From Octopus vulgaris (taxonomy: Eukaryota): a stretch of 64,000 bases of DNA. Below the pieces are notes generated by a model that was not told where the DNA came from, searched no databases, and worked only from the letters and a program-made list of their open reading frames with translations. The stretch's first letter is position 1. The number at the start of each line of letters is the position of its first letter. Made by a program: the position numbers and the translations under genes. Below, piece after piece: positions 23,490-51,124 of the stretch. The stretch spans positions 94,488,001 to 94,552,000 of the forward strand of contig OX597819.1 in the NCBI GenBank assembly GCA_951406725.2, given 5' to 3'.

Positions 23490-25418
23490 GTAGTGTATTT
23501 TGTTTTTATGATAATGGTCTTAGATGTTTTATGGATTTGAATGATGATGATGAATGATCAATGTCCAATATTTTAAATCCAGGTTTGTCCCCGTTAACAG
23601 GAATGGCCAGATCTACCTCACTCTTACAGCAACCGCTCTCACACCATCTTGCCAACTCACCCAATTTTGGGCATCCTCCCACCTCATGCCAACCCTCCCA
23701 ATCTCTTGCATGACCAAGGATGAGAGTTTGCACCTTCCTTTCAGTCCCATTGCAGCACCTTGGGCAAGTGTCTTCTCTTATAGCCTTCAGCTGATCAAAA
23801 GCTCGTGAGTGGATTTGGTAGATGAAAACTAAAAAGAAAGCCTGTTCTGTGTGTTTGTGTGTATGTATACATGTACATATGTGTTTATGTGTGTGTATAC
23901 GTTTCTCTATTCATAACATAATGGTTGTAAATGAGCATCATTGTCACACAAGCAAATCCCACTGAGTGACACCTTGGGCAAGTGACTTCTGCTATAGCCC
24001 TGAGCTGACAAGTGTCCTGTGAGTAAGTTTGGTTGATGGAGACTGTGTGGAAACTTGTGGTGTATATATGTGTGTATATGTCTGCGTTTGTTTCTCCCAC
24101 CACTTGATAACAGGTGTTGGTTTGTTTACATCCCTGTAACTTAATGGCTTGGCAAAAGAGACTGATAGAATAAGTACAAAGATTAAAAACTTAAATACTG
24201 AGGATGATTTCTTTGATTAAAAATCCTTCAAAGCAATGCTTCAACATGACTGCAGTTCAGTGACTGAAACAAGTAAAAGATAAAAATAAATCCTCGTGTA
24301 CGACAGCTTCTAACTGTGTGTTGCCATGTTAGTTTTGGTTATACAAGTGAGATCCACTGAAAACCAACATAGTTTACAGCAATAAAATTCTGTTCTTAGA
24401 GAACTTAGTCATGGTCTGGTAGAATGAGTCATTGAAATGTAAATGTTTTAGCTGTGGACTGAGTACTATCCCAGTGACAGAATAATCACAGAATGAGTCA
24501 TTTAGTTATCTGGTACCTACAAACTTGACAATTTTTTTCTCTTCTGTACACACACATGGCACATAAAAAGCACCATCCGAACATGGCTGATGCCAGCGCC
24601 ACCTGACTGACGTCTGTGTCGGTGACACATAAAAAGCACCAACCAATCGTGGACGTTTGCCAGCCTCCTCTGGCCCCTGTGCTGGTGGCACGTAAAAAGC
24701 ACCCACTATACTCATGGAGTGGTTGGCGTTAGGAAGGGCATCCAGCTGTAGAAACACTGCCAGATCAGACAGGAGCCTGGTGCAGCTTCCCAGACCCCGG
24801 TCGAACTGTCCAACCCATGCTAACATGGAAAACGAACATTAAATGATGATGATGATGATGAGATATATATATATGTGTGTGTGTAAAAGAATAAACAATC
24901 TCAGTTCAGTGCAATACACGTTTCAGAAGTAAGATATCCACCAAATCAAATGTGTACTATATCATATTATAAAGATATTTACCTCCACATCAGGCACATG
25001 ACTACCACATCAGAGTGATCTACATAAGCCAATTGTATGCTGAATGCTGAGCTGTTGACTTTCATCTATGTGATTCTTATAAACTTATATATGTAGGGGT
25101 GCTGAAAAGTTCTTGGCTTTGGGTAAAAAAAGATACAGGAGGATCAGTTAATTATGATTTTATTCAGCATATTCCCCTCTCAGATGCACACACTTATTAC
25201 AGCAGTCCATCAGTTTTTCTAAGCCCTGTTAAAAAACTTAAAAGTTTGGGTCTCCAACCAAACCTTTCACAAAACCTTTAAAGCCAGGAACTTTTCAGTA
25301 CCCCTTTATATATATATATATAATGTCTATGTAAAATATATAAACTGCATCTACTTAGTTACACATGATTACAAATTTTATTGTGTATGTATAAATTCAA
25401 GTTCTTTATGTAAGTTAA

Positions 25419-25655
<237 letters not shown>

Positions 25656-27814
25656 TAGTCTTGGTCATTGAGCTCTAGCTGTGCTGGAGAACTTTCAAGT
25701 GTTTTAACACTTTAGCATTTAAACTGACCATATCTACCCCAAATATTCTTTAAGCTCAAATTATCCAGATTTTGTCTTTTACACCAACCTTACAATGTCA
25801 CACCATTAAAATATTGAAGCTATGAGATGAGCCTTGATTAATTCAAAACAATATGAATAAATAAGCATTACATTTGGCAGAGTGATCTGAATGCTAAAGG
25901 GCTGATTGATATCAAATCCACTTCCGATACTTGTTTCAGTCTGGTATTGTTTTATTGATCTCAAATTGTGCTTCATACAGAAGCATTGTTCAATCTGCAC
26001 CTTCACTCTCAGGAAGGGTACCTTCATTGTGAAGAGAAATAGTAGTTCCCTGAATTTTTACCATCCCATTCTTTCTCTGGCTGTTATGCTTTTTGCAGCA
26101 ACCACTTTCATTGCTTATTAGGTCAAGGAGGAATATTGTATGTTAATAATTCTCAATATGCATAATAATATTCTGTTTGTTAGTAAAGTTACTATCGAAA
26201 TAAAGTTTATCCAGTATGTGACACAAAACTAACTTCTTCAATTATATATATATATGTGCAGGTGGCACATAAAAAGCACCATTTGAGCATGGCCGTTGCC
26301 AGTACCGCCTGACTGGACCTCGTGCCAGTGGGACGTAAAAAGCACTGACTACACTCTCGGAGTGGTTGGCATTAGGAAGGGCATCCAGCTGTAGAAACTT
26401 TGCCAGATCAGATTGGAGTCTGGTGCAGCCATCTAAATGTCTAAAAACGAACAATACAAAAGTATATATAAATCAATATTGGGCTAAATATTCTATTCTT
26501 TGTTTTCTTTTCTATCAATTTTATATATATATATATATATATACACACATGCACTTTATTTGTGGGTTATCAATGCAACCAATGGTTTCATGCAAAGATA
26601 TCTTCTCAATTGTTCAAGTGTACTACATGGAAGTGTTGGTACTTGTCTCCATTTTCAATGAGAATTCATGAGGTTACATGAGACTGAACAGGACATTGTA
26701 ATAAATACACAGATCGCAGGAGGTAACTTATAAGAATATCTTAATTGTTATTTTCCCTTGCACTAGCCCTGGAATTTTGCAAGAAATTGTGTTCACCATA
26801 GATTAATTCTTTAATTTTCTTATGTAAGAAACGTTCATACATGTCCATATTTATAAATCATACATACACATATGTAAAAGATACATGTATAAACACACAC
26901 ACACACCCTACAATATGAGTACATACATATAATTATTTATGGGATTTCATAGGTTTTAGAAGCCAGACTTCGTCCATGGAATTGCGAGTTCATAGATTTA
27001 TATAGATATGCTTTTTCTTGTTACTCATGTGATGTCCTAAATGTGTTATGCATATAAAACTGTGTGATTAGGGAATCCAGCCTAAGTTCATGGGGTGTAT
27101 GTCTTTAATGTATAATGTACATATATTATTGATATCCAAAAAACTGATGTGTATTTATTTCAAAATCCATGGCCGATGCTAGTGCCGCTTGACTGGCACC
27201 TGCGCCAGTGGCAAGTAAAAAGCACCATTCAAGCGTGGCCAATGCCAGTGGCACGTAAAAAGCACCATTTGAGCATAGTCGATGCCAGTACCGGTAGCAC
27301 ATTAAAAGCACCATCCCAGCTTGGTCGATGCCAGTGCTGCCTGACTAGCTTCCATGCCAATGGCACGTAAAAAGCACCATTCGAGCGTGGTCATTGCCAG
27401 TGCCACCTGACTGGCCCCCATGCTGGTGGCATATAAAGAGCACCCACTACACTCTCGGAGTGGTTGGTTTTAGGAAGGCATCCAGCTGTAGAAACCTTGC
27501 CAGGACAGACTGGAGCTTAGTGTAGCTTCCTGGCTTTCCAGTCCTCAGTCAAACCATCCAACCCATGCCAGCATGGAAAGCAGACATCAGTCTCATGTAA
27601 CCTTGTGTATTCTCATCCAAAATGGAGATGAGTACCAAGATTCCATATGCCATGCAGGAACAATTGTGAAGATCTCTTCACATGAAATCATTGGCTTCTT
27701 AATCCACAAATAAAAAAATATTTATCTACCAATGCAGTGTTGAGCACTCATTCTCACTGTTCAATATTGGCATATATATATATATTTGTTTCTCTTTCCC
27801 TCTCTGCCTCTTAG

Positions 27815-28013
27815 ACACGAATACTAGTAACCCATAATATCAACTACCTTGAACATATGGACATGATTATTGTAATGAAAGATGGCCAGATCAGTGAGAG
27901 AGGAACATTTCAAGAACTTCTTGGTCATAAAGGGGAATTCTCAGAATTCTTGCAAAATTATTTAACAGAACAGAAACAAACTGGAAATGAAGCTAGTGAA
28001 GAACAAGAAGCAG
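27815..28013 (+). CDS. ABCC1: ABCC1-like exon, NBD1 H-loop into linker (199 nt)
   Basis: ttag|ACA..GCA G|gtcagt. Translates TRILVTHNINYLEHMDMIIVMKDGQISERGTFQELLGHKGEFSEFLQNY... Confidence 0.94.
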
Positions 28014-28982
28014 GTCAGTATCTTCTTTTTTTTTTTCTCCTTCTGAAATTTATTCAGTCCTCAAAGAATCATTAAACCATAGAACTTTATAATTCTTTCT
28101 TTTCAAATGTTTAGATTTCCAAATTCTTGTTGTTGTTTATATTTTCAGTAAGGGGCTTGTTTTTAATGCTAAGAAATTGTCTAAGAAAATATTTACATCT
28201 GGGTTCAATGCCATGATTTTGGAAACTTTATTCAAATACATTTCTGTGCTGGTGGCACGTAAAAAGCACCAACCGATCATGGCTGTTGCTAGCCTCCCCT
28301 GGCACCTGTGCCAGTGGCACGTAAAAAGCACCCACTACACTCATGGAGTGGTTGGCGTTAGAAAGGGCATCCAGCTGTAGAAACACTGCCAGATCAGACT
28401 GGAGCCTGGTGCAGCCTCCTGGCTTCCCAGACCCAGTCGAACCGTCCAACCCATGCTAACATGGAAAACGGACATTAAACGATGATGATGATGATGATGA
28501 TTTCTCTCTTAAATTCTCCTTCATTATCTTTATATTAAATTTAAAAAATCTATCTGTTATCATTTACTAATTTCAGTCATTGAATTGCAACCATGATGGG
28601 GTACTGCCTTGAAGGGCATATTTGAACAAATCAACCCCAGTACTCATTTTTATTAGTCTATTACTTATATTGGCCTCTTTTGCTGAATTGCAAAGTTACA
28701 GGGATGTAAAGAAACCAACACCTGTTGTTGAACACTGGTGAGATAAATACAAAGATACACACACAAAATATTATTAACTTTCTTTTATCTTTTACTAGTT
28801 TCAGTCATTAGACTGCAAGCATGCTGGAGCATCATTTTGAATAATTTTTATTTGAATGAATAGCTCCCAATACTTATTTTTTTTTAACCTGGTACTTTTT
28901 CTGTCAGTCTATTTTGCTGAACTGCTAAGTTATGGTGATATAATCAAACCAACACCAGTTGTCAAGCAGTGGTATGGGACAT

Positions 28983-29025
<43 letters not shown>

Positions 29026-29920
29026 CTACACTCATGGAGTGGTTGGTGTTAGGAAGGGCATCCAGCCGTAGAAACATTGCCAGATCAAACTGGGCCTGGT
29101 GCAGCCTTCTGGCTTCCCAGACCCCAGTTGAACCATCCAACCCATGCTAGCATGGAAAGCGGACGCTAAACGATGATGATGATGATGATGATGATATATG
29201 ATAAGATTCTTTCAGTTTCTGGATACCATATCTACTTGCAAGGCTTTGGTTGACCCAAGGCTATAATAGAAGTCACTTGCCCAAGGTGTTATGCAGTGGA
29301 CTGAACTATGTGGTTGGGAAGCAAACTTCTTGACACACAGCCACATCTGCTCCTGTAAATATGGATGTGTGTGTGTGCTGGTGGCACATAAAAGGGCACC
29401 ATTCGAGTGTGATCGTTACCAACACCGTCTTACTGGCACTTGTGCCGGTGGCATGTGTAAAAAGATTCGAGCGAGGTCATTGCCAGTATCGCCTGACTGG
29501 CTCTGTGCCGGTGGCATGTAAAAAGCACCCACTACACTCTCGGAGTGATTGGCATTAGGAAGGGCATCCAGCTGTAGAAACCATGCCAGATCAAAATTGG
29601 AGTCTGGTGTGGCCATCTGGTTCACCAGCCCTCAGTCAAAATCGTCCAAAGTGGACGTTAAACGATGATGATGATGATGATGATGATGATATACATACAC
29701 ACACACACACATATACATGTTCCATCTACCAAATTCACTCACAAGGCATTGGTTGGCTCAGAGCTATAATTTAAGACACTTGCCTAAGGTGCTGCACAGT
29801 GGGACTGAACCCAAGACCATATGGTTAATGCTGTAGACTGTAGAGGTGTGCTGTTGTTTTTTTTCACATTTAAAATAAATTGTTGATGAACATATATGTG
29901 TACACATGTATTTGAGTACA

Positions 29921-29959
<39 letters not shown>

Positions 29960-30251
29960 GCCATTGCCAGCCTCGCCTGGCACGTAAAAAGCACCCACTA
30001 CACTCTCGGAGTGGTTGGCGTTAGGAAGGGCATCCAGCTGTAAAAACACTGCCAGATCAGACTGGGCCTGGTGCAGCCTTCTGGCTTCCCAGATCCCCGG
30101 TCGAACCGTCCAACCCATGCTAGCATGGAGAACGGACGTTAAATGATGATGATATGAGAGAGAGAGAGAGAGAGATACATTCATTTATTTGCATACATTT
30201 TTTTTATATATCTTTCCTAAATGAAAGTAATAATTTCAAATTTTTCTGTAG

Positions 30252-30303
30252 ATGATGATATTCATTCTTCACTTGAGGAAATTGTGCCTGAAGTTCGTAG
30301 AAG
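30252..30303 (+). CDS. ABCC1: ABCC1-like small linker exon (52 nt)
   Basis: ctgtag|AT GAT..AGA AG|gtaaag. Translates (D)DDIHSSLEEIVPEVRR(R). It bridges the phase-1 donor at 28013 to the phase-2 acceptor at 31626. The linker is poorly conserved, so support is splice signals and phase only. Confidence 0.75.
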
Positions 30304-30364
30304 GTAAAGTCTATGCTGCTATTTCTGTATTTGTTCTCTTGGCTTCAGCTTCCAGTCCTCCTGT

Positions 30365-30920
30365 GCTACTCTTGCACATCCATTCCACATAATGTTGACT
30401 ATTTTCAGGTCATCTTATAATGTCCACTACCATGTGTTTTTATACTGTTCTCTTTATGCCTGCCATCAGGTAGTGCCCAAGTCACAGCTGTTTTTGAGTG
30501 TTGCTGATCAGCTGGGTGAAGAATGTGTCCAGCCAGGTGGAATCGGTGCTCTGTTACAATCTTTTGTATGAACTCTTCTCAGAATTCCCTCATTAGTAAC
30601 AGTCCCACCAGTAGCATCGTTTGTAACACAGTCCCACTTGTAGCCTCAAAAGTACCACAGAAAGATCCTGTGGCACCATTGATGAAATACATTAAATTTT
30701 CTTTCCGTCCATATTGTGCTCTTCTAAGTCTCACTGGCATAGAGCAAAGGGGTTATACAGATGAAATTACTGGTCATTGCTGATGTTTGAGGCTGCCCAG
30801 ATGGAATACATATGCTGGAACACTGCTACTGCCTTTCCAATCCTGTAGTCTGTCAAGTTCCACATTACTAGTGCTACTTACAACACTGCCCAGATTGGTG
30901 AATTGGTTCACTTCTGTCTA
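30365..30920 (-). mobile_element. Decayed RTE-like LINE fragment
   Basis: The minus strand has remnants resembling E.NQFTNLGS, RIGKA and RFHLAGH(I), as in an RTE C-terminal region. Confidence 0.5.
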
Positions 30921-31557
30921 GTATTTGCTTTCACCCATCCATCTACTGACTTATGTAAATTAGTGGGCTGTTTAGTGTACATTGTAGATTAGTCACTATT
31001 TCTCTTACTCCACATGCTTGTTTTAAAGGTTACATCTCTAATACTTTGTTGTTAAGAATCTATATGTTGGATGAAGATTCATAGAGGTATATCTGTTGAA
31101 GTCCGTTCAACATATCCCAGCAAGTCTTTTTCTTAATGCTAACTAGGGCACTCTTATATGGTTGTATGTCATGTTAGGAATGTTAGCCAATCTCCCTCAA
31201 AACGCACTCAACTATTTTTAAAATAAAAGAAGACTCGGATGGAAATGTTAGTTAAACTAGTTTGAGATAAAATACATCTTTTATATTTTACTTGCTTCGG
31301 TCATTGGATTGTGGCCATATTACAGCACCACCTTGAAGGATTTAGTCAAACAACTTGACCCCAGTACTTATTTTTTTAAAGTCTGGTACTTATTTTATCA
31401 GTCTCTTTTGCTGAAGAGCTAAGTTACAGAGGTATAAACAAGCCAACACTGGTTGTCAAGTGGTGGTGGAGGGTAAGCACATACACAGACACACATATAT
31501 GTGATGGGCATCCACTGTATCTGTGTACCAAATTCACTCACAAGCTTTGTGTGTGTA

Positions 31558-31615
<58 letters not shown>

Positions 31616-31625
31616 TACTTTTCAG

Positions 31626-31764
31626 ATGGCATGGTCAAGAGGATGGGAAAATGGGCTCACCAGTGATGTCTTTGAAATCAGAGAATGCCTTTGAACTTGC
31701 TGAAAAAGACCAGTCTACTCCAAAAGATAAATTAATCGAGAAAGAAGCAACAATGACAGGAAAT
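31626..31764 (+). CDS. ABCC1: ABCC1-like linker exon (139 nt)
   Basis: ttcag|A TGG..AAT|gtgagt. Translates WHGQEDGKMGSPVMSLKSENAFELAEKDQSTPKDKLIEKEATMTGN. KLIEKE...TG is the conserved pre-TMD2 motif. Confidence 0.88.
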
Positions 31765-32561
31765 GTGAGTCGCATATTTTTTCTTTCCTCTCAGTGGTCA
31801 AGATTGAAGCATGCTGAAAATTTAAATTTACTATATAAATACACATTTTCACAGGCCAAAATATTTTGATGTAGATATGAATGTAACTTCAATGCAGTAT
31901 CATTAAAGAAGTTTTGTTTTTTATAACGGTGAAACAAAACCTAACTAGTTGTAACCTTAAGCAGACCTGTTGCAAGATATTTATTGGTTCAGGACAACAT
32001 AAAATGCCATCTAGTCATGTTGCTTTGATAGAATAACAAAGATGATATTGCACATTGTGTAGTGTTCATCATGAGGTGTGGAGGAATACCTCTTAAAAAA
32101 ATTTGAGGATTGAAGAGGGGTGGACAAATTGCCCATGTTTAATAAAATTAAGATGATTTTTAAACTTTGTAAACTTATCCAACACTATGGCAAAGAAAGA
32201 ATAACTATACAGATGCAATCTCTATTTTGTGTCTTCTTATAAATGAAGTGGAGTGGGTGGGGTTGCAGAACCACTAACTTAGCAGTTGTGGACTAAGGGT
32301 GGTGAAGAGGATATGCGCACACATGTGTGTATGTACACATATACATGACAGACTTCTATACAGTTTCTAGCTACCAAATTCACTCACAAGGCATGGGTCA
32401 GTTCAGAGCTATAGTAGAAGACACTTGCTCATGGTGCCATGCAGTGGAACTGCACCCAAGACTATGCGATTGCAAAGCAAACTTCTTAAGCATATAGTCA
32501 TCCTTGTGAAAGTTTCCTTCAATTTCTAATTAAAGATTTTCTGTTTTTTTCTTTCTTTCAG

Positions 32562-32784
32562 GTGAAATTGTCAGTGTTTTTAGCCTATGCTAAATTTGTC
32601 GGTGCCAAATTTATGTTAGTAACTTTAGTCACATTTTTCATGGTTGGTGCACTCAACATTTATTCAAACATTTGGCTCAGTGAATGGAGCAATGATGCCT
32701 TGCTTATTCCACAAAATGGTACAATTGACACTTCCCAAAGAGATTTGAGACTTAGTGTTTATGGTGTGTTGGGGATTAGCCAGA
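32562..32784 (+). CDS. ABCC1: ABCC1-like exon, start of TMD2 (223 nt)
   Basis: ttcag|GTG..CAG A|gtaagt. Translates VKLSVFLAYAKFVG...SNIWLSEWSND...RDLRLSVYGVLGISQ and ends in phase 1. Confidence 0.95.
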
Positions 32785-33792
32785 GTAAGTTTGAATTTTT
32801 TATTATTTCTCTTTCTTTTTTTCCATGTTAAAGACTGACAGCATCGATGGATAAAACAGAAATGTCTGTAAAGATATTGTTGTTCTCTTATTACATTTTA
32901 ATTTAGTTTTCCCCAAATATTTTAGTTTGATGTAAACAATAATTCTTGGTAGCTGTAAATATTGTTCATAAATTGGAATGGGAAGTTAAGACTCCTATTT
33001 CATGCAAAGACTTTCTTGGAAAGAAAATAAAAGGTCTCTCTTTCTCTCCCTCCCCCCTCTCTCTCTTTTTCTCTCACCCCAGCAAACAGCTTTGCTCAAA
33101 ATGTCAATATTCATAATTTCCAAAATTGTATGATCTTCACAAAATATTTTTTACTAGTGCGAAACATCACACTGTATGTAATTTTTCTGTTTAGTCAGAG
33201 AGAAAAGAACAGCCCTATGATCTCTGCTTTTTCAGAGTTTCTGAGACTGATTGTAAGAAAGGAGAAACTTAACCTCAAACTGGAGATGTCCAAATGCTTG
33301 CACCCAAGGACCAATCAGTGTTTAACTAGGCGACAGATTAAGTCTACTGTTTAAGGACTCAGAACACAAAAAACCAAAACATGTATTACAAAGGCCCTCA
33401 TCTGCTACTTTAGCAGTTTTGCTAATCTACCATCTTGGAATGGTACTTTATTTTATTGATCCCAAAAGGATGAAAGGCAAATATGATGTTAGTGACATAT
33501 GAACTCAGATTGCGGAAAACCAGAGCAAATACCACAAAGTATTTTGTTTTACACACTCTCAAGCAACTCTGCCAATTCACCAACTTAATATATTCATATA
33601 GCCAATTATTTTGAAACTGATTGTCAACAGTATATTTGTCATCTTATGGCACAGTTGGTTTACTTTATTTTTCTACATGATTCTACTACTGGTGGTAGGG
33701 GGGTTCTGGGTTTAAATTTTTTTTTTTTTTAATGTAAAAGAATGCTTGTGTTCCTGTTCATTCAAACAAGATTCATTCCTGTTCATTATTCC

Positions 33793-33818
33793 AGAAGAGT
33801 ATCTATCACATGTTTTCC
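33793..33818 (+). promoter_or_regulatory. Putative upstream docking element for mutually exclusive splicing
   Basis: AGAAGAGTATCTATCACATGTTTTCC is complementary to 38286-38311: about 23 bp in total, with 13 contiguous pairs including 2 G-U. Confidence 0.6.
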
Positions 33819-33994
33819 TCAGCAGCTTCCAATAGAGAATCTTAAATCTTTGTCAGCTACCTCTTTCATTAACAGAATTAATATCTGGGATTGCTCGATG
33901 TTGGCATATATTTTTAACTCTGTTCCCATTCTTGAACAGAAGAAATTCAATACTTCTTTTTATAAACTTTACTATGTTGTTTTATTTCTTGCAG

Positions 33995-34305
33995 GTATTG
34001 CAGTAGTGATAGCTGATCTGCTTTTATTTGTTGGTTGCCTACGAGCTGCAGGCTTCCTCCACGAAAACATACTTTCCAATGTTCTTTTCTCTCCAATGGC
34101 CTTCTTTGATCAGACACCTGTGGGCCGACTCCTCAATCGGTTTGGAAAGGATGTAGAAGTCCTGGATTTCCGTTTGGTTGAAAACATTGAATCGTGTATC
34201 ATGTGTTTACTCAGGATTGTTTCTGTACCCATCGTTATTATACTCAATACACCTATTTTTATAGTTGTCTGCATCCCTCTCTTCATCTTATACTTCATAG
34301 TTCAG
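33995..34305 (+). CDS. ABCC1: ABCC1-like alternative TMD2 exon, copy A (311 nt; about TM13-ICL3-TM14-TM15)
   Basis: gcag|GT ATT..CAG|gtttga. Translates IAVVIADLLLFVGCLRAAGFLHENILSNVLFSPMAFFDQTPVGRLLNRFGKDVEVLDFRLVENIESCIMCLLRIVSVPIVIILNTPIFIVVCIPLFILYFIVQ. Phase 1 in, phase 0 out. Confidence 0.93.
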
Positions 34306-34391
34306 GTTTGATAGCATTTTTTTGTATCTTTGAATTTTTCTAAAATTTATTCTTTAAAAAAAATATACTATTTTTTAAAAAATATGTATTG

Positions 34392-34411
34392 CATAGTTTA
34401 TCGTTGGAATT
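34392..34411 (+). promoter_or_regulatory. Putative selector element downstream of exon copy A
   Basis: CATAGTTTATCGTTGGAATT is complementary to 38770-38790: 11 contiguous bp, then 4 bp after a 1-nt bulge, extendable. Confidence 0.5.
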
Positions 34412-37400
34412 AGGTAGGCTTATTCCCCCCATTCAAAACAGTCTTTCTCTCTCTTGGTTTCACTCTATAAAATCTTATTTTATCAAAAATCCCATATGCA
34501 ATTTGTCACAAAATTGTAACACAAACTTTGTATTCTTAGTGGTCCAAAGTCTGCTCGTTTAGTTATGCACTAGATATACATGTCACAAAATGAAGATTTT
34601 ATTTTGTTAAATTACCTATATATTTTACCTGGACTAACAATCTTGCTAAACCGATTCCACTCATACCATCAATGTATATCACCACCTGTCACCAGTGTTT
34701 TTAAAACTAAATGTCCAAGTTTGTTTTACTACAACAACCACTTGTTTTTGTACAATTTTTAGAGATTTCAGCTTGAAGTTTAAACACCTTATCATAGCCT
34801 AGAGAGAAAATAATTTGCACATTTTTCCAGTATACTAATGGTAATTAAATTAAATAACAAAAGAAGAAATGAAAATATTATTTGTTGTGTAAATATCTCT
34901 TCCTATGTAGATATATATATATACCATTAGGAAAGAAAATGAAATAATAGGAATTAATTGTAATGCTATTTGCTTCTTTTCTCTTTCTCTCTGACAAGCA
35001 TGTTGCTTTATTTTAGTCATTAAATCATGCTATCCTTGCTGTTTTATGCTTGTCTTTAGTTTGATTTTTACTGTGAAAATTAACTCACTTTATCAGTAAT
35101 TCACACTTATATTTTCATTTAATTACAAATGGAATTGTGAGGATGGTAGCTTTTAGAAAATTAGAATTACTTAAGATTTATTTTTTTATCTGATCCCTTA
35201 TCATTGTTCCTTTTATGTAATTTAATGAAAATTTTCAGGTCTTAAAAGATACTGTAGTTAAATATCTTCATCAGAACACCAGAAACTTGGGGTTTATTTG
35301 TTGTTATTCACTTATGAACACCAAATTATTAAAACTTTAATAAAGCATTACTGCTTTATGTCCTTATGATATTTCAAAAATCCTATTAGACATGGATTTG
35401 TTGTCGAGTCACCAATATAGCCAGATTTACTTTCTATATCAATAGCAGTTTTAAGTCTCTCATCATTTAACAGCCTTTTTCCTTGCTGGCATGAGTTGGA
35501 CAATATGACAGTATTTGAAGCTTTTGTAAATCACTGAGAATGTTTCAAAATTGTGCATCTTTTATTGATAATTAATGTAGTCCAATTAATATGAAGCACA
35601 TATTCATTTTTAAGAAAAGCTTATTAACGACTCAAGCATAACTATTTTTGTAGTATTTTTTATAGTTTGCTAGTATTTTTTCTAAGATTATGGCGAAGAG
35701 AAGAGAGGATTGCAATCATATCATCTAAATTGAGTTTTACCATTTCTTTCTACAGCAATAGTAGTATCACTTTTTTTTCCACCTCTCTGTTTTAGCACCC
35801 ACACATACATTCTGTATCATCAAGCACATTTTACATTAGCTATTAAGTTGTCTTTTGGTTTCATTTCCAGTAAAATCTAAGCATTTTTTTTGTTCCATCA
35901 CTTGCACTTTTGATGTGATATAACTACACTGTCTGTTGTCTTCAATTAATGTTTGACTCAATAACAAACAGCTTTCAGCTTTGACCCTTTAGCATTCAAA
36001 CCAGCCATATCCAGCCCAAATATTCTACCTGTTTTATATTCAAACTGGCCTTATCTGCCGCTCACCCTTACCCTACAATGTCATTCTAAAAATATACAAA
36101 CATAATGAAACCTCAGAGCTGTGAGATAATGCATGATTACTTCAAAATAATGTGAATAAATAAGCATTACATTTAACAGAGTAATCTGAATGCCAGGGGG
36201 TCAAACTGCAATGACACTTAAAGCCTTGTTTATAAACATTAATTAATGAAGCTTTATATAAGTAGTTATATGCTTTCTTTGACTTTTACTTTTCTCTTCT
36301 TTTTTTTTTAATTCTTTCTCCCTCTTTAGGAGCAATTACTAATTTGTACTTTTAATATAATTACTTATCTTTTCCTATAACAGATCTCTTGGAATATCTA
36401 CATTTTCTTCTCTTAATAACCAGTGCTTCTAATTCTCTCTCCTCTTTGCAGCATGTGATATACATACATATATATATCCCATTAAGCAATTTTCTTTAGT
36501 TTTATTTTATTTGTATGTTAAATTGTATTGACTTTTTATTCTTTTATATTTTCATGTTTTATTTCTTATTAACATTTTTATGTTTTTTAAATTTTAGTTT
36601 TATTTCTCTTTTATTTGTTTTTTGTTTATTTCTTTCAGTTTTCAGTTTTTTTCTTTTTTTATATATTTTGTTTGCATTATCTTTAAATAATAATAATAAC
36701 AATAATGATAATAATAATGGCAATAATAATGATAAACTTTTCTAAACATTAAGTTAGTTCAGCTTATATATATATATATAGACAGAAGTCAACTCATGGC
36801 TAAGACAACTTCCTAAGTAATTCTGTGCAAACGTTCTGGGAGCCCAAGAAATTTCTGTGCATAAATTTGTATTAAATGGATAAAGAATGGCATAGCATTG
36901 AACCCACTTTTCAGCATAATCAGTTCTAAAACTAGTGGCACAACAGAGGCTGAGATAACCAGAAACCAACTGCACTTCAGGTTTTTTTAATATGTGTTTA
37001 CCTTCTAGAAGGAAGTTCCTACAACTAGGAATCCTTCGTTCCCAGTGGTTTACATGCTAATTAACTCTGAGCTGGGACCCTAGCAGATGTTACTCAGGGT
37101 CAGAGTAGACCTGGAAACAATAATGGCTAGGAGGTGGTTTCACACTCACTCAAACCCTAGAACTCCAGTTCCAGGGTTCCACTACTAAGTCATACCCAGT
37201 GGTGGGAGGACACTAAAATAATAGTGTTTATTAATTCTCTTCCTTTTTATAATTTAGATGATAATGATTACTATCATAAAAAGATGTTTAGCCTATTATA
37301 TTCTAAGCGCTTAAAGTAGTAGATTATGCATTCAAAACTAACCGCTGCTAGTATGCTATTCCCTTGGATAATGCATATTTCTAATTAAATAAACTAATTA

Positions 37401-38285
37401 AAATGATAACAGGCTAGATTCAAATTAGCACCATTCATTTCCAAATTAAGAGCAATAACACCCTTAACCACAAAAATCATTGATGCATAAGCACATAATT
37501 ATCCTTACATTAGAAATTAAAGTTTCCTTTCTCAAAACCCATATAGTGCTATGTACAAACCTAGGAATCATACATCTGATGATAATCAGTTATTGAAACC
37601 TAGGATAGATTATTAGTATCATGGCAAACATTATTAGTCTGGAAATTGCGTAATCATATTAACAATGCATATCAGGCATTTAAACAGTTAAGTATTCTAA
37701 AAGTTTCTGCAATCTAAACCTGCTAAAAGGGAGAAAATAATAAACTAAAATTGTGCTAAAATAATAATGCCACACAACCTTTTCAACTGTTGTAATATCA
37801 CAGAAAATTTACAAGAAAAAATTTAATACAAATGAAAATATATTAACCTACTCCTTCTTCTCATTTGCATCATTATCATTCTAAGTCTTAAATCTACGAC
37901 TGCATGCCAGGACAGATTGTACACTGATTGTACACTGTATACTTAATGGCTACCATATTTGCCTGTGCTGGCTCTTTTGCATATTTGGTTGTGTTTCTGA
38001 AGTTTTACCTGGAGACTTTACAAGTAGATGCCCTTATTTAGTGGGGCATGCTAAGTTATGTTTGCCATGATACTTTCAGCAGAACCTCTTCATTAACCTA
38101 AGAGATATCTTCACTCCATATCAACTTCAGTCCCCTACCATAAAAAACAAAATAAGTAAATAAACCAAGTGTGTTTCTTATGGAAACCAATAAAAGAAAA
38201 ATTTGAATTATAAAAATTGTTTTAAGAGTAATATTTTACTTAATTTTATTAATTCTTAACAATTTTATTCACTTTTATCAAACTC

Positions 38286-38311
38286 GGAGTAAACATGATA
38301 GATATTTTACT
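38286..38311 (+). promoter_or_regulatory. Putative selector element upstream of exon copy B
   Basis: GGAGTAAACATGATAGATATTTTACT pairs with 33793-33818. It abuts the branch-point-like TACTTAAT at 38308-38315. Confidence 0.6.
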
Positions 38312-38387
38312 TAATTTTTACTTTGTTGTTTTTTAAATTTTTTTAGTATTTTTATTTTATTTTGTTCTTTATTGTTTTGTTATGCAG

Positions 38388-38698
38388 ATGCGATGAGCAT
38401 GATAGCTGCACTCTTAATGGCTTACTCTGGTATGCACGCTTCATGTGGTGTGTTTGATAAACTGCTTGAAAACATCTTGCACCTTCCTATATCTGCTTTC
38501 GATGCTATTCCAGTCGGCCGAATTATAAATCGCTTCTCATTTGACATGGATGATGTTGACAATGTCATTCCGTTTACTATTCGCTCCATGCTAAATACAA
38601 TAATAACGGGTGCTTTCACTTTTCTAATCCTCTCTATAAATACTCCTCTTGTCATTTCAATTGTGCCTATTGTAGGCATAATGTTCATATATGTCAAG
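38388..38698 (+). CDS. ABCC1: ABCC1-like alternative TMD2 exon, copy B (311 nt; paralog of 33995-34305)
   Basis: Long pyrimidine tract, gcag|AT GCG..AAG|gtaact. Translates AMSMIAALLMAYSGMHASCGVFDKLLENILHLPISAFDAIPVGRIINRFSFDMDDVDNVIPFTIRSMLNTIITGAFTFLILSINTPLVISIVPIVGIMFIYVK. Same length and phases as copy A, no stops. Confidence 0.9.
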
Positions 38699-38769
38699 GT
38701 AACTATATACTTGTATTACATTTTAATTAAAAATGTATTTCTTAAAGATTGTGCTTATATGTATATACA

Positions 38770-38790
38770 AGTTCCAATGAAAACATAATG
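38770..38790 (+). promoter_or_regulatory. Putative downstream docking element after exon copy B
   Basis: AGTTCCAATGAAAACATAATG pairs with 34392-34411. Confidence 0.5.
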
Positions 38791-39189
38791 AAGTTTAAAA
38801 ATTATGGTTTATGCATAAAATAAATTTAGAACCACAGTATTAATTATAGTCTAATGGTATCAGAAAACTCAGTTTAGCTACTTTAAAACAGTTGCTAGTT
38901 TGTTTTTTTTTTAATTCATTGCCTTCTTATTTGCTGAAAATAAATCTACAGAAATATTAAACCAGCATTGAAACTTTGAGATTATAGAGGTTTCTACAAA
39001 TATTACATAATATATTTTAAACCAGAGAACTAATTTTAGCTTTATAATGTTAAAGAATTAAGCTCTAGGATGTGAGTGTTCTATATCCTTTCCATTAAAT
39101 CAATACATGAGAAGAAAATAACAATCAGTTATATATATATATCTTAGCTGCTTTCTTGTATATGAGCAAAACCATTGCCAGAAAGAATC

Positions 39190-39490
39190 ACTGAAATGAG
39201 TCATTGTTGATGTAATGTGAGGCCCTCCTATGACTTGAGCCCAGCAAAAGATTTGCACATTCTATTGCACAATGCACAGCAGTGCTGGCTGGCAGAAGGA
39301 ACAGGTGCCATAGTATGAACTCCTTTGACATGCCTTTTCAATCCTCCAACTGAGAGGCACACCTTTTCGCAGGTTGCACATGTTCTGTTGTGCACAATAG
39401 CCATATCACAATTTACCATGAGTCAATTTTTGTGAGCTCTTTGATGGCTGACCAGGCCCACATTACTCAAGCACCTCTCTTCTCTTAATC
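39190..39490 (-). mobile_element. LINE 3' fragment with paired C2H2-like zinc fingers (similar decayed fragment at about 42400-43010)
   Basis: CATCEKVCLSVGGLKRHVKGVH..CALCNRMCKSFAGLKS, then a stop. It is isolated in an intron with no exon structure and resembles the C-terminal finger of RTE-like LINEs. Confidence 0.5.
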
Positions 39491-42400
39491 TTGGGATATA
39501 TATACATACACACACATATATATATAGATGAATAATGGTTAAGAGTCCATACAAATCAAAAATTAGAGTTGGAAAAGGCACAGAAATATATTTTAGAGAA
39601 TGATTAATAAAATATTACCTGTTTCAAAGTATCCATCTTAACAAATATAGAACTCAAATTTGGGTACAAATATATATATAATCATCATTGTTATTTAATG
39701 ACCATTTTCCATAGGTTGGACAGTTTGACAAGAGCTGGCAAGCTAGAGGGTCATGGTAAGGCCTGCTGCCTGTTTTGGCATGATTTCTATGACTGGATGC
39801 CCTTTCTAACATGAACCACTTTATGGAGTATACTGGGTGCTTTTTTGTGGCCCTGGCACCAGTGGGGTTTCCAAATAATTTGCAAGAAAAGTCATTGTTT
39901 TAACATCTGCTTTTCCAAACTGCTTTATATAAGTAACAGTTTGTAGCAGTATAGTTTTATCATCAAATATTTTTTCTTAAGCATCCATTATATGATTTAT
40001 ACTTTTTGGCCGGGTACTGTTTTTATCCCCCCAAAATATAGTATTGCCAATTGGATTGACTATAGTATTTTACTAGAGCATATTTTTTATCATTTATGAA
40101 TATGAATGCTACATCATCATCATCATCATCACTTAGCATCTGTTTTCCATACTGGCATGGGTTGTTTGGTTTGACAGGAGCTGCCTAGTCAGAAGACTGC
40201 ACCAAGCTCCACTGTCTGATTAAACATGGTTTCTATGGCCTGATGCCCTTCCTAATACCAAACATTTTACAGGTGTACTGAGCACTTTTTACGTGGCACT
40301 AGCAACAGTGAGGCCACCAAATAATTTACATGACAAGACCCCCTTAAGCTATTGGGTGGGCTAACTAGAATTGGAAAAGGTGGCTTGGTGCTTGATGAGA
40401 AGTTACAGTATGAGTAGAGGGACAGAAATAAATGTCTTGCAATAAAGGAAATATATGGATGCCTTAGTAGGTGGGGATGAAAAGATGGGGGATACACTTA
40501 AATTACAGGGAAGTGAATATAAGTGAAGTGAGACCAAGGATTGGACAAGGTGAGTGGGAGGCAGAGGGAATGTAGTGAGTGGACAGAGATAGAGGGAGGG
40601 GGTGTTTAGGTGGATATGTTGTGGGGAAGACATTCAACAGGAATGATAGGGAGTAGTGGGGTACAGCAGATGGTGAGCACAAGCGAGGAGAGAGGGGAAG
40701 TGCCGCAAAGAATTGAACTCAAAAGTTACAAATCAATCATTGAGCGAAGTATTTTTTGTACAACCTTTTATTTATTGAAATATTTTCACTGATCAAAATA
40801 GGCTCATATTAATTCTGAAATAATTTCCTGAATTCTATGACCTGCATGACATAACATGTCATATGTCTTCTGAATTCTTTGCTAGCTCATAACGGCTACA
40901 TACTGATCGGCATCTGAAGCAGTATCTTTGTTTTCATGTTTAATTATGCATGTTAGCATGCATTACACACAACTATTAATATACTCTCAGCCTCTTTCCT
41001 TCACATTTCAATCTTGTGTTAGCATGTATGAGAGATTAATATATTCAGATCAATTTTAGCCACTTTGAACATCAGCCTACATTTCTTCACTCAGCATGTA
41101 TGATTTATATTGTTGCATATCTATAACTCTTATACTTATTTCTCCTGGATGCATACAGTAACCAATGCCTTTGGTAATATAGCTGCATGCTTTTTCAACT
41201 CTTTTGCACTGGCTTTTCTCACAAGTTAAACTTATATCTATTTACTGCTCTCACTGCTATACAGTATCACAATTTCTACATACTCTATAACTTTATTTTG
41301 TTTGTTTCTTTGAAGTTTTTTTGTTGTTGTTGTTTTTCTTCTTACTTTTTCCATGCTGGCATGAGTTAGGCAAGACTTATTGAAGCAAATTTTCTACAGT
41401 TGGATCCTCTTTTTGTTGTGAACCTTTATTTTATTTTCCTAAGAATGGTATTTTTTTCATTCTATTGGTCCTCACCTGTCAAAATTGATTGAACAAAAGG
41501 CCTTTAGTTTACTGGAGAATGTAAATAATGTCACTAGTTTATTCAGACAGTGTTAATGAACACACACATGTTTACACAATAGACTTCCTCATAGTTTTCG
41601 TCTACCAATTCCACTCGCAAAACATGGGTCAGCTCAAGGATCCACTCTACAGGACTGAACCCAAAAACACATAATTGAGAAGCAAACTTCTTTACCACAC
41701 AGCCATGCATGTATCAGTTTGTCTTTCATAAAGCTTTGTATTGTTGTTTAGTATAGTTACAGTCAAGTCTCACATACTAAATATGTTGAGCTTTGGTGTA
41801 TTTTGATATCATACCTTACACTTCACAAATATTGTTTAACTGAGAGGCATATTGAATTTAGTTATCAGTGCAGAGACTGGCATTATAGATACAGTTAGTA
41901 CATAAACTTGATTTTTTTTTTATGTTTAACTATTATATATTACCATTATATTCTCTTTCTAGTAAGTTATCTGGACACTCTACAACCTTTTAGTCCAAGA
42001 CAACTCACATCACTATCTCTCTACACCAGTGTGTCTGGTTTCCTTAAAGGGATTTTTTTCTCTCATATTACCAGAGATCTTTCTACTTTTTTTTAGTTGG
42101 TGGCTATTTGCAATGAGCAAAGATATTCAGTTTTCTGCCTGGTTCATAATCATCACCATCATCGTTTAATGTCTGTTTTCCATGCTGGTATGGGTTGGAT
42201 GGTTTGACTGAGGCCTGGAGAGCCATTCTGCATATTTCACAAGTTCCTAACATTTGTAAAAGATCTCTGTTCGTTTCTCAAATTTTCTAATCTAAGACTT
42301 CTTATATTCTATATTATGGTAATAATCATCACTGTCATTGGTGTTTCACCCTGTATTCTCTTTCTTTAATATATATTGATTGGCTTCTTTGTGGTTTGTC

Positions 42401-45157
42401 CTTCATTGTCAACGGTGACCAAGACTTATGATTAGCTTGTATATCTAGTCTAGTGAGTCTAGATGTGACTGATGATCCCTATCCAGGCCAGGAATTTTCT
42501 CCCACATTGAGGGCTTTTATGGAAACGTGCAACACTCAGAGTACTTATAGTTCTAGCTTTGTTGAGTGAACGCTTCTCAGAAGCAGCAGTTCTTGTGTTT
42601 TTAGCTGCTTGGGCCTCAGTGTAAATCAGACTGCACCAGTTGCATCAGCTTTGGGCAAGCTGCTCTCAAGAGTCAACTACAATGGTGAAGTCTTTTAGAG
42701 ATACTTTTATGTAATCCTTGAACCACTTCTTTTGCCTGCCACAACAGTATGTTTTCCCTCACAAAATTTGCAATAGAGAAACTGCTTTGGGATGAGATGT
42801 TTTGGTATGTAATGATATGCCCAGGCCATCTCACCTCAGTCTTTACAAGAGGATGTACAAGATTGGAATATTGGCTTACTGTACTTATTGCACTTCATTG
42901 CCCAGGATCTTGTTTTTCCAGCAGATGTGCAGGATGCTGTAAAGCCATTGTGTGAAAAGAATTGAAATATTTCGTGTGTTTCTTATAGACTGTTTAGGAC
43001 TCATAAGCATATCAGCTCAACCTTTTTGTGATTAAATTTCTAACATGTACACTATTTCTTATATATCAATATAATCAGGACTTTGGGAGTTCAGCAAAAT
43101 ATCTTACTTCATATATTGGTATTTATTATGTTGATGTTGATAAACTGATATCATGCTATCATTCATGCAACATTTTCGTTCAAATATAAAATCTTAAGTG
43201 TGGCTGGCCTCAGACAGGAGTTGCTATATAAAAGGCTTAAAATCTTTTCTCATAAATTAGTCTAAATTATTTCACTTTCAATGATAGTAAAATATAAGAT
43301 ATATAGATAGCACTTTCACTTACATATAATACGAATATTTTCTCATAAAGTGTTCTTGAATTCATAAAATAATCTAGATTTGTTTTTTGTTTTTGTTTCA
43401 TGTTGCTGAAATGTAAAGGTTAACGTAATAATTTTACTAAATCTTGTCTTTGTAATTAATAAAGTTGTTTGCTAAATCAGTTTAAGATCTTTGTTAAAAC
43501 AATTTTAACACTAAGTAAGAAACATGGTTATATAACATTCTAATTCATTGGTGCTGGATTTATACTCATCTTATAATAACTCTGCTTGTCATTGCTTTAC
43601 TTAGCCCATGGGTAACGTTTTCATGTAACTAGAGAAAAAGAGGGCAAGAGAAGTGTCCATGGCATGGGGTATAGGGAATGTAATTGTAATGCTTTCACGT
43701 GATTAGTTGAAGGGAAAGAGGGGAGAGAGAAAAAGAGGATAAGACAGAAAGAGGGAGAGAAAAGCATCTATGACATGAAGTAGGGGGAACGTAATATTTA
43801 TTATATGGTTAAAAATGTGAGTTGAAAGTAGAAGAGGGGAGTTTAAAATATAATTTTAACAGAGGGGTGATGTTCTGATGGTGAGGTTAAAGAAAGGCAG
43901 AGAGGTAGGGAGATGATGATGGTGGTGGTGATTGGATAGTGAAAAGTGTTTGTTTGTTTTTTGTCTTAATTGAACTAAGTTTTTTACATCACCGTTCACT
44001 TAACACAGGCACATAAGTGCAATTCCATGAAATATTCAAGCTTATTTACATGGCAGATATATGCAATTTAACTAAAGGTTGTATCATATGTATGAGATAT
44101 TTTTTTCTTTATGGGAAAATGGAAAAATAAGAGTAAATATTTATTTTATGAGTGCTGTGTATTAAATCTATAAAATTGTGCATAAAGTATATAAAGTGTA
44201 TATATAAAGTTCATTAGGTAACCGTCATATTCCAATTTCTTTCACTTTTCAATGAGTAGCAGATAAGCGACAATCTTTCCATTCAGACACTGCACAGACT
44301 ACACTTTCAGGTTTTTTGGATAAAGTTTTCAGAAATAACCCAATAGGTTTACCATTAATTCCATTATTCATGGGTCCCACTAGTAAATTTTAATTTTCTC
44401 AAACTTAAACATTGTTCACTCATATTGTTGATATAAATTTACAAGTTGTCACTTTATCATAAAATTATTTGTTTTGAGATTTTGCCTCAAAAAAATTGTG
44501 AATGACATATTTTTCAAGCTGTTCAAGTATTAATACAGAATTTCTAAAGCCTCTGAGAACCATGTTCCTACTGTCATGGGTCTGCTTGATTAAAGATGAC
44601 CTGAAGCTATAAAACACAAAAAATATTAGCATATAATCTCTGTGTTAATAATCCTTAGGTATATAACAATTTATTAGAAGCCAAATAATTACTAGTTTTG
44701 TTATTCTTTTTGTGCATGTAAATGCAGTTCTTTGCTGGCATAGTTTAAATGGCTAACAGGATCCAATGGGCTCAAGGACTACATCCTGTTCCAGTGTCTA
44801 TTTGCAAGATTTCTACAGCTGGATGCCCTTCCTAATGCCAACCACTTTACAGTGTGCACAGGGTGCTTTTTTTCATACCAGTGGGGAAGGCAAACTTTAT
44901 ACTAGGAGGATAAGGTGTAGAGAGGGGTAAAATATGAGAGAAAAAGGCCAGAGCAAAGCAGGTTTTTTGTTGAGGGGAGGATGGGGAGAGCAGGAAATTG
45001 GTGATGAGGTGTCAGTGTAGACCTTAGAGGTACATGGTGGCTAAGAATGGGTAGAATAGGGGTACCAAAAATGAGTGGAAGAAGTAGAGGATGTTTTATT
45101 TATATTTTTGTCTTTTTGTTCACATATTATAAAACAGAATAAAAAAAACTTTGCTAA

Positions 45158-45388
<231 letters not shown>

Positions 45389-45430
45389 TAATTTTATCTT
45401 CTCTATACATTATTATTATTGTTGTTGTTG

Positions 45431-46548
45431 TTATTGAGTGAGAAAGCAGTGCATGCCATCAGAGTAACTGGGGTAAAATATATGAAGCCTCGTATTATAC
45501 CCATCACAACTACCCATCTGATAAGGGTAACCCAGGCACATTCATCACAACCATGTGTGCACAACATGATGACCTGATATTGAAATAAACAGCCACATGA
45601 CCTTGCAAGTGGGGCCCAGTTAGAATTTTCATGTTGAGTAGCCCATCTCACTCAAAAGGTCTCTAAATAAGAGTTGTTTAAGGATGTTGAACAAAACACC
45701 CATGTTTCCAGAGATGAATTATTCAAACTCCAAAGTATTCCTCTCAATACATGGCTATGGTGCTCCCACACTACTTCTGCTCATAATCAGAGATGCACAT
45801 ATCATCAGCCACTAAGGAACATGCTCAACTAGTTATGATCAAACAACTGGCAGGCAAATCTGTGGTATTGAGAGCAGAATATTTGCTGTAGCCCATCTTT
45901 TATACCAAGACAAAGCAGTGTACATGATAACACTTCCAATCAGTTAAAATCAGGAGCCATGAGAGTCACTGCTTAGTACTTATCAGGGCATTTATTATTA
46001 TTGAGTGAAAGAGCAGTGCATGCCATCAATGTGACACTGGAGTAAAATATACGAAGCCTAGTATACCCATCATGACTACCCGTCTGATAAGGGTACACTA
46101 GGTACACGCATCACAACCATATGTGCGCGATATGGTGATCTCATATCAAGATAAACAGTGCATGACCTTGCAGGTGGGGCCCAGTTAGAATTTTCTTCTG
46201 GTTGAGTAACCCATCCGTCTCTAAATGTCTTTGAATAAATAATGTTTAAGGATGTTAAACAAACCACCCATGTTTCCAAAGGTGAATTATCCAAACCTCC
46301 AAGAATTCCTTTCAACACATGGCTATGATGCTCCTCCACTACTTCTGCTTGTGGTCAGAGATACACATATCGTCAGCCACTAAGGGACATGATCAACTGG
46401 TTATGGTCAAACAACTGACAAGCAAATCTGTGGTATTGAGCAGAATATTTGCTGTAGACCATCTTTTATACCAAGACAAAACAATGTACATGATAACACT
46501 GCCAATCAGTTAAGATCAGAAGCTATGAGAGCCACTGTCTGGTACTGC
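45431..46548. repeat. Two tandem diverged copies of a ~560-bp repeat
   Basis: 45431-45990 and 45998-46548 align throughout (TTGAGTGA..GCAGTGCATGCCATC ... GAGAG.CACTG) and are separated by (TTA)n. Confidence 0.85.
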
Positions 46549-46832
46549 TATTATTATTTTTTTTTTTCCTTCTTTTTACAAATTTTCTTACATTTCTCGC
46601 CGAGTGTTTTCCGTACACCTAGGGCAGAGAGGCTCATTGTATGCATTCCCAGATTACACACACAAATTCACAGTTAAAATATGCATTTAAAAAAAAATTA
46701 ATAAATAAATAAATTCATGAATGGATGTTGTTTTCACAGCGATAATGCTCTTCTCAGTACATGAGCCATTCCAGTTAACACGATTTTTTGCACTTCCTCC
46801 TCCTTCTTATTATTATTATTATTACAACAAAA

Positions 46833-48055
46833 GACAGTGAGCTGGCAGAATCATAAGCACACTGGGCGAAATTCTTATCATTTCATCCATCTTTACATTC
46901 TGAGTTGAAATTCCACCAGGGTTGACTTTGCCTTTCATCCTTTTGGGGTTGATAAAATAAGTACCAGTTGAGCACTGAGTTGATGTAATCAACTAGTCTC
47001 CTCCCCTGAAATTTCAGGCCTTGTGCCTATAGTAGAAAGGATTATTAAGGTTATGAGCTGGCAAAATTGTCAGCTCAACAAACAAAATGCTTAATGCCAT
47101 TTCATCTGTGTTTATATTCTAAGTTCAAATTGTGCTAAGGTTGACTTTGCTTTCATCCTTTCAGGAGTGATAAAATAAGTACCAGTTGAACATTGGGGTT
47201 AATGTAATCAATTAGCACCCTCAACTCTGAAATTTTAGGTCTTGTACCTATAGAGTTATTATTATTATTATTTAAGGTAGCTAGCTGGCAGCACTGTTAG
47301 CACATGGAACAAAGTGCTTGGGGGCATTTCATCCACCCATTCATTCAAAGCTCATATTCTACCAAGTTTGGCTTTGCCGTTCATCCTTTTGCAAGTCAAT
47401 AAAATAGGTACCAGCTGAGTGCTGAGGTCAATGTTATTGACTTTCCCCTCCACTAGAATTTCAAGCCTTGTGTCTCTGATAGAAAAGAATGGCAGCAGGA
47501 GGAGGAGGGTGGCAAGCTGACAGAATTGTTAGCATGCCAAGCAAAATGCTTTGTGGCATTTCTTTCGTCCTTACGTTCTGAGTTCAAATTTCGCTGGGGT
47601 CAATGAAATATGTACCAGCTATGCACTGGAGGTCAATGTAATCAACTAGTCCTCCAAAACTTTAGGCTTTGTGCCTATAGTAGAAAGGATTATTATTATT
47701 ATGTTATTATGATCAGCAGCAGCATCAAATGGCAAAATCATTGCGATGCTCAACAAAATGCTTAATGGCACTTCTTCCAGCTCTTTGCATTCTGAGTTCA
47801 AATCCCACTGCAATCAACTTTGTCTTTTATCCTCACCTATGATTGATAAAATAAAATAGCAATCAAGTACTGGAGTCAGTTTAATTTGACTTAACTCCTT
47901 CCCCTCAAATTTCAACCTTGTACCTATGTTAGAAACAATTAGTATTTTTACTTTTATGAACTTTTATTAGGGCAGTTGATTGGCAAAATTGTCTTACAGT
48001 ATTTATTCTGGCTCTTTTTATTCTGAGTTCAAATCCCACTAGGACATCTTCATCC
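46833..48055 (+). repeat. Tandem array of 5-6 diverged ~220-bp SINE units
   Basis: Each unit reads GAGCTGGCAGAAT..TTCTGAGTTCAAAT..GACTTTGCCTTTCATCCTTT..GATAAAATAAGTACCAG..(ATT)n. The central motif resembles the Nin/Deu SINE domain as I recall it. Dispersed copies also occur (e.g. 21974, inverted at 50470-50670). Confidence 0.75.
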
Positions 48056-48415
48056 TTAATACGCTACTCTCTGCTGTTACCAAAATAATGTGGTTGCAAA
48101 CTGACAGCCATTGGTTGTTTTTTTCTTTTCCTTTTTTTTTTTCTTGTGGTAATGTGATGATAGTGTTTAGTACCAAATCAGCACCAGCTGAGCTGAATTA
48201 TGATCAAAGACAATCCACTTGTCACCATCTTATCTCCTGAACTTTAGCCATAATGTATCAAGAACTAAATTATCCATCAGCATATCTTTTTTTTCTGAAT
48301 GGTACTGTGTGAACTGAGAGAGATTTGACTGCTGTTTCTCACAAGTCAAATGACCATCTAAGGACTCCCTTGCTGACATGTTTGTTCCTTACCTTTTCTT
48401 CTTTATTTTTACTAG

Positions 48416-51093: not shown

Positions 51094-51124
<31 letters not shown>

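Follow-up and report, generated by a model that had tools for sequence, protein, structure and literature searches.

A predicted pair of mutually exclusive exons exchanges the TM14 pocket wall of an MRP1-like transporter in Octopus vulgaris

In a 64-kb stretch of Octopus vulgaris DNA (hereafter the window), we find an MRP1-like ABCC gene on the plus strand in which two tandem 311-nt exons, A and B, each encode the region from transmembrane helix (TM) 13 to TM15. We predict that A and B are tandem-duplicated, mutually exclusive exons, a new case of an established type of splicing, with an annotation already in place for a congener, Octopus bimaculoides. The best explanation for the pair is probably an exon swap that alters one wall of the transporter's binding pocket and, with it, the preference for cargo. 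The part most worth following is the deep conservation of the pocket face encoded by exon B. The features on which the argument draws are as follows.

7878..62282, plus strand: span of the MRP1-like ABCC gene by tblastn, with approximate ends, covering about residues 305–1405 of a 1510-residue protein.
32562..32784, plus strand: constitutive upstream exon, TM12 region, 223 nt, donor phase 1.
33995..34305, plus strand: exon A, 311 nt, TM13, intracellular loop, TM14 and TM15 (human MRP1 1028–1130), non-B type.
34165..34215, plus strand: TM14 codons 1084–1100 of exon A, with D1084, R1086, E1089, E1092, S1093, M1096, C1097 and R1100.
34306..38387, plus strand: intron between A and B, 4082 nt, with no additional exon copy detected.
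38388..38698, plus strand: exon B, 311 nt, phases as in A, belonging to the F1089-R1092-S1093-N1096 exon clade.
38558..38608, plus strand: TM14 codons 1084–1100 of exon B, with D1084, V1086, F1089, R1092, S1093, N1096, T1097 and T1100.
45188..45387, plus strand: constitutive downstream exon, 200 nt.

Both 311-nt exons have AG/GT ends and matching phases. Their peptides, present on the plus strand, are identical at 28 of 103 residues in an ungapped alignment (BLASTP E = 1e-12); the segments compared in an earlier note on this DNA begin at codons 34138 (A) and 38531 (B). The reading frame stays open when the upstream exon is joined through A to the downstream exon, and equally when it is joined through B. 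When A and B are both included, translation stops 7 nt into B; when neither is, it stops 144 nt into the downstream exon, so each full-length product can contain only one copy. The double-inclusion and double-skip products would be removed by nonsense-mediated decay. A hidden Markov model scan of the window in all six frames finds no third copy of the exon. Taken as an exon pair, A and B are almost certainly real.

Exon A is 100% identical to the 1510-residue O. vulgaris protein CAI9724597.1 (P0002), whose exons tile the window. This protein contains TMD0, two ABC_membrane and two ABC_tran domains, and all three families pass the cut-off; in the N-terminally shorter O. bimaculoides protein P0016, TMD0 reaches 26.9 bits against a cut-off of 27. 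The closest PDB match of the B-bearing O. bimaculoides isoform is MRP1, and the glutathione-site residues K332, H335, L381, F385, Y440, Q450, W553, R593 and F594 are kept in that alignment, which runs to about residue 970. For this check, the PDB alignment of the B isoform was read against the contacts listed in PMC12647609. Every glutathione-binding residue visible in this alignment is encoded by a constitutive exon. The predicted product is a long ABCC, MRP1-like exporter, for which ATP-driven export of glutathione conjugates or drugs is predicted.

The RefSeq MRP1 isoforms X1 (P0009) and X2 (P0016) of O. bimaculoides carry A and B, respectively, and differ only across residues 963–1066, where 74 residues, mostly off the pocket face, are changed. 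Between O. vulgaris and O. bimaculoides, 98 of 103 residues are identical in B and 101 of 103 in A, compared with 1285 of 1367 (94%) in the remaining protein, which places the constraint on B at or above the average. Given the congener annotation and this conservation, B is very probably spliced in O. vulgaris. Against this stands the outcome of our protein searches, in which no B-bearing protein of O. vulgaris or O. sinensis was found. The same outcome would suit an exon B that is merely a decaying or rarely used duplicate of O. vulgaris with no functional isoform, as would the scores of B against the MRP2 and MRP1 structures, which fall below those of A (best 51 versus 78 bits). We consider such decay very improbable, in that B has an intact frame and intact splice ends, exceeds the gene's average identity to O. 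bimaculoides, is annotated there in an isoform of its own and is of an exon type kept in distant animals.

Aligned with human MRP1 chain 8vt4_A, residues 7–103 of A correspond to 1034–1130 and residues 10–102 of B to 1037–1129. Because the matched spans are equal in length, a single offset of 1027 applies, and the MRP2 alignments of A and B are gap-free. With this offset the residue readings of the earlier note are correct: Asp at 1084 is kept in both exons, 1089 is Glu in A and Phe in B, and 1092 is Glu in A and Arg in B. To these three positions we add 1086 (Arg in A, Val in B), 1088 (Val, Pro), 1093 (Ser in both), 1096 (Met, Asn), 1097 (Cys, Thr) and 1100 (Arg, Thr). The mutation tables of PMC7072590 list Asp1084, Glu1089, Lys1092, Met1093, Ser1097 and Asn1100 of the human protein. 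In the cryo-EM structures of bovine ABCC1, Q1088, M1092, S1096 and N1099, which become 1089, 1093, 1097 and 1100 when one is added to reach human numbering, contact vincristine, E1SO4 or a cyclic dinucleotide (PMC12647609). At these four positions A has E, S, C and R, and B has F, S, T and T. Three of the four ligand-contacting residues therefore change, and the structural premise of the earlier note, that the choice of exon alters TM14 pocket positions, holds. The objection that the differing residues might face lipid fails for 1089, since its bovine equivalent Q1088 contacts ligand (PMC12647609).

Side-chain facing was assigned from the bovine structures together with an ideal helical wheel centered on the four contacts, on which 1086 lies +26° from the contact face, 1096 lies −54° and 1092 about −94°. 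Two points weigh against reading too much into this geometry: the wheel is a crude model, and AlphaFold2 run on exon B alone, with no alignment supplied, gave an uninformative prediction (predicted local distance difference test score 50, predicted template modeling score 0.25).

The earlier note went on to propose a charge switch, with an acidic pocket in A for cationic substrates and a hydrophobic or basic pocket in B for anionic or conjugated ones. The pairing of E1089 and E1092 in A with F and R in B speaks for it, and E1089Q markedly affects drug resistance while organic-anion transport is unaffected, as cited in PMC1488846. E1092 occurs in all six other cephalopod A exons, compared with six of 126 other non-B segments, and this rarity outside cephalopod A leaves room for a partial charge effect. 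Removal of the charge at K1092 is also said to have raised cationic-drug resistance in TM14 mutagenesis from 2003. However, the cavity face at 1086, 1089, 1093, 1097 and 1100 reads R, E, S, C, R in A, with a net charge of +1 to which R1086 and R1100 contribute, and V, F, S, T, T in B, with a net charge of 0. Over 1085–1101, A is balanced, with two acidic and two basic residues, compared with no acidic and one basic residue in B. Residue 1089 is itself variable, being Lys in four of the six other cephalopod A exons (one of them from Sepia pharaonis) and Glu in two (O. bimaculoides and Argonauta), and the partner exon of the non-cephalopod loci described below has Arg or Ser at 1089 and His or Ser at 1092. 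B-type exons are in turn the more acidic at 1078, with Asp or Glu in 17 of 33. E1089A has little effect on the export of vincristine or glutathione, and bovine ABCC1 has Gln at this position (PMC12647609). Position 1092 points well off the contact face on the wheel, and no mention of its bovine counterpart K1091 was found in the accessible text of PMC12647609. We thus regard substrate switching by exon choice as plausible in its general form and the acid-to-base version as quite unlikely.

Among the six other cephalopod A segments, V1088, E1092 and K/R1100 are constant, and they are cephalopod-specific. The codons for E1089 (GAA, 34180) and R1100 (AGG, 34213) are each one A-to-G change from the Lys of the cuttlefish-cluster A exons. 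A-to-G is the type of change made by A-to-I editing; the transcript-sized assemblies of the cuttlefish cluster read Lys and show no sign of editing.

For the preferred explanation, in which the swap changes cargo preference, we propose the following mechanism. Exchanging A for B would replace TM13–TM15 and with them the TM14 wall of the 'plastic' pocket for a hydrophobic co-substrate or conjugated moiety. Both isoforms would remain glutathione-linked exporters with a shared glutathione site and different preferences for cargo. In B, the wall would be neutral and aromatic (F1089, T1097 and T1100, flanked by R1092 and N1096) and constant over deep time; in A, it would be polar and of mixed charge (R1086, E1089 and R1100, flanked by E1092) and changed within the cephalopods. 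We infer that the two walls differ in shape, aromaticity and charge placement, with no clean acid-versus-base switch, and the substrate profiles of the two isoforms are likely to differ as well.

Alternatively, the swap could mainly tune gating, ATPase coupling or regulation, and not cargo. The exon also encodes the cytoplasmic extensions of TM13–TM15 and a coupling loop, most of the 74 residues that differ between the O. bimaculoides isoforms are off the pocket face, and the basic residue at 1078 is lost in all 33 B-type rows. In human ABCC2, moreover, a regulatory segment binds the cytosolic cleft between TM14 and TM15 (PMC10844203). Yet both A and B keep the ABCC2 TM14 arginines of the same study (R1079 and R1083, equivalent to human MRP1 1071 and 1075), and the conserved columns most specific to B (1089, 1092, 1093 and 1096) lie in pocket-forming turns, an argument that is partly circular. 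On this evidence we judge a primarily gating role unlikely.

The conservation of exon B emerges from a search with B over 1.84 billion representatives, from which we kept the best 150 of 4560 matches (E ≤ 0.001), a sample biased toward B-like segments. Near-duplicate proteins, segments shorter than 80 residues and P0095_161 (a TMD1 match) were left out before trees were built. In a tree of 167 rows, B falls inside a 34-row clade with a support of 96 by the Shimodaira–Hasegawa-like approximate likelihood ratio test (SH-aLRT), separate from A and every other segment. The 33 rows of this clade other than the window's own have Phe or Tyr at 1089 in 33 cases, R1092 in 32, S1093 in 31 and N1096 in 32, and the complete F-R-S-N set is found in none of the 126 non-B segments; these counts involve some circularity, the motif having served to select the group in the first place, and this tells against our reading of them. 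A column outside the group definition shows the same division, with Lys or Arg at 1078 in none of the 33 B-clade rows versus 98 of the 126 others. Judged by these comparisons, the conserved partner of the pair is B and not A.

Apart from P0168, the matches in the B clade are short single-exon fragments. One of these, the single-exon protein P0021, is 47% identical to B and sister to octopus B (support 96), and may represent exon B in a different cephalopod or mollusc. P0168, a prediction from Paragonimus westermani, joins a partial B-like piece to a non-B exon downstream of it and sits on a very long branch, for both of which reasons it is weak evidence. In the ESM Atlas, B and an exon from one of the loci described next (L009) match generic ABC_membrane clusters only.

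We found the exon pair in other animals through a metagenome scan with patterns lying outside TM14, which yielded 28 loci (L001–L028). A complete 311-nt B-type exon is present in 25 of them, in every case with F-R-S-N, and seven (L001, L004, L005, L009, L013, L024 and L028) also contain a complete 311-nt partner, with flanking exons that correspond. Of 18 loci with a B-type exon only, 16 end before the partner or the downstream exon and L006 breaks off within the partner. The remaining loci are L025, which is truncated, and L026 and L027, neither of which is B-type. The B-type and partner exons of these loci are identical to the octopus exons at only 24–46 of 103 residues, and the loci are therefore not cephalopod. 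L028 belongs to a distant AT-rich genome with introns of 53–99 nt.

Two further observations concern these loci. In L021 (1592–2940), 837 nt separate the B-type exon from the downstream exon and no partner lies between the two; the locus may be a gene copy with B alone, an allele with a deletion or sequence wrongly joined across a repeat. In L001, L004, L009 and L013, an intronic block about 140–260 nt 3′ of the B-type exon is conserved at 70–84% over four pairwise matches, and we consider it a candidate splicing regulator.

B-type exons cluster by type and not by species, with a support of 97 in a 63-row tree and 99 in a 38-row tree, and the B clade keeps a support of 91 with columns 1085–1100 removed. 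The approximately unbiased (AU) test rejects a cephalopod-only duplication, in which A and B are held together (p = 0.023), as well as one confined to the L001 group (p = 0.036). On these trees we lean toward a single duplication older than the cephalopods. Several points weigh against that view. The trees are quick ones of about 100 columns, and the 63- and 38-row subsets were hand-picked; one fungal long-branch row falls inside the B clade of the 63-row tree; without the motif columns, the AU rejection of a cephalopod-only origin is borderline (p = 0.0495); and L001–L025 are close kin that amount to roughly one lineage. In addition, the exon order is B then partner in all seven complete pairs and A then B in octopus, and to account for this reversal, either the exon must have duplicated again with a loss or the ancestor must have had three exons.

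That the octopus order is unlike the other loci is also a point for a different history, in which repeated independent duplications converged on one TM14 motif. PMC6071210 credits Yue et al. with multiple independent MRP exon duplications across phyla, and other tandem pairs in our set (P0027, P0020, P0022 and P0033) fall wholly outside the B clade, which argues that the TM13–TM15 region duplicates repeatedly. We nevertheless hold convergence to be possible but doubtful for the B-type exons themselves: their clade survives removal of the motif columns, the AU tests reject the corresponding arrangements both for the cephalopod pair (at borderline strength without the motif) and for the L001-group pairs, and exon length and phase are identical. 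As a separate observation, the predictions P0027, P0020, P0022, P0024, P0033, P0050 and P0112 contain two or three joined copies of TM13–TM15, all of them outside the B clade, and probably represent further exon arrays that arose independently at this site.

If the single old duplication is accepted, a broader reading can be offered more tentatively, short of being our expectation. B may be an ancient pocket module that arose by one duplication in early spiralians, after which the TM14 face and the loss at 1078 were fixed and the partner drifted as the xenobiotic-facing version. Its range would take in octopus and further intron-rich animals, one animal with a compact genome and, perhaps, flatworms. 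Such a module, if true, would suggest that the B isoform serves an endogenous cargo that is itself conserved, and the idea of separate origins of MRP exon pairs in each phylum would need revision.

The intron between the octopus exons contains one more feature that we considered.

37615..38074, no strand assigned: 17-nt perfect inverted repeat with arms 37615–37631 and 38058–38074, 314 nt upstream of exon B.

This repeat beats shuffled sequences (1 of 300; fold z = −2.3). Inverted matches of at least 17 nt occur in six of 15 four-kb portions of the gene, however, and we rejected the repeat as a splicing switch because it is ordinary among the gene's own introns. Our search for docking-site and selector pairing found only one strong stem, which has a single partner; weaker or G-U-rich pairings were outside its scope. 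Elsewhere in the gene, 19567–19712 (minus strand) is an inverted 146-bp copy, 95% identical, of 25553–25698. The source is the 3′ part of an exon for the first nucleotide-binding domain (NBD1) with its donor, and the copy lies in an upstream intron; its appearance is that of either a recent local duplication or an error in assembly.

The exon pair amounts to a natural swap of one pocket wall in a multidrug transporter with the rest of the protein identical. Because the isoforms are otherwise identical, they offer a clean test of the part that TM14 plays in ABCC substrate choice, and also of whether MRP exon duplications diversify cargo. The pair is also relevant to the way octopuses deal with toxins from diet and environment. 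Should the B lineage be old, it would point to a conserved substrate, and the exon may be absent from many invertebrate annotations. Our literature search, run over titles and the beginnings of abstracts and covering few subscription papers, returned neither an octopus MRP exon pair nor a conserved TM14 motif, and term searches of the accessible text of PMC10912322, PMC8042237, PMC5740500 and PMC12772994 found no mention of the event.

The octopus pair has close parallels. Among them are the O. bimaculoides isoforms X1 and X2, which contain the orthologs of exons A and B, are the same protein elsewhere and come from a computational annotation with no functional reading attached. The best structural relative is mammalian MRP1/ABCC1 with its bipartite pocket (PMC12647609), whose glutathione-site residues are kept in octopus. 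Unlike in the mammalian protein, M1093 is Ser in both octopus exons and N597, I598 and M601 differ, so mammalian mutant phenotypes need not transfer. Tandem mutually exclusive MRP exons are established in Drosophila and C. elegans (PMC6071210, PMC9741552). Similar to Drosophila MRP (CG6214) and C. elegans mrp-1, with which we compare it by description, the octopus gene swaps homologous exons in the MRP transmembrane region. The fly cluster comprises eight exons (PMC6071210; PMC9741552), in contrast to octopus, where there are two copies only, 28% identical. The fly MRP isoform 8a 4b has been assayed (PMC6185855), and fly MRP is mentioned in passing only in the accessible parts of PMC8373072 and PMC9013439; in the accessible literature we found no side-by-side isoform assay of MRP exon variants. 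MRP tandem exon arrays across phyla were surveyed by Yue et al. 2017 (RNA Biol 14:1399), per PMC6071210. The octopus pair differs from those arrays in that no competing RNA pairing was found. The phyla named in the abstract of that survey are said to include Mollusca, Annelida and Platyhelminthes. The octopus pair is like the arrays, as PMC6071210 describes them, in gene family and in the kind of event. The survey is cited there for independent origins, whereas our trees favor one old B lineage.

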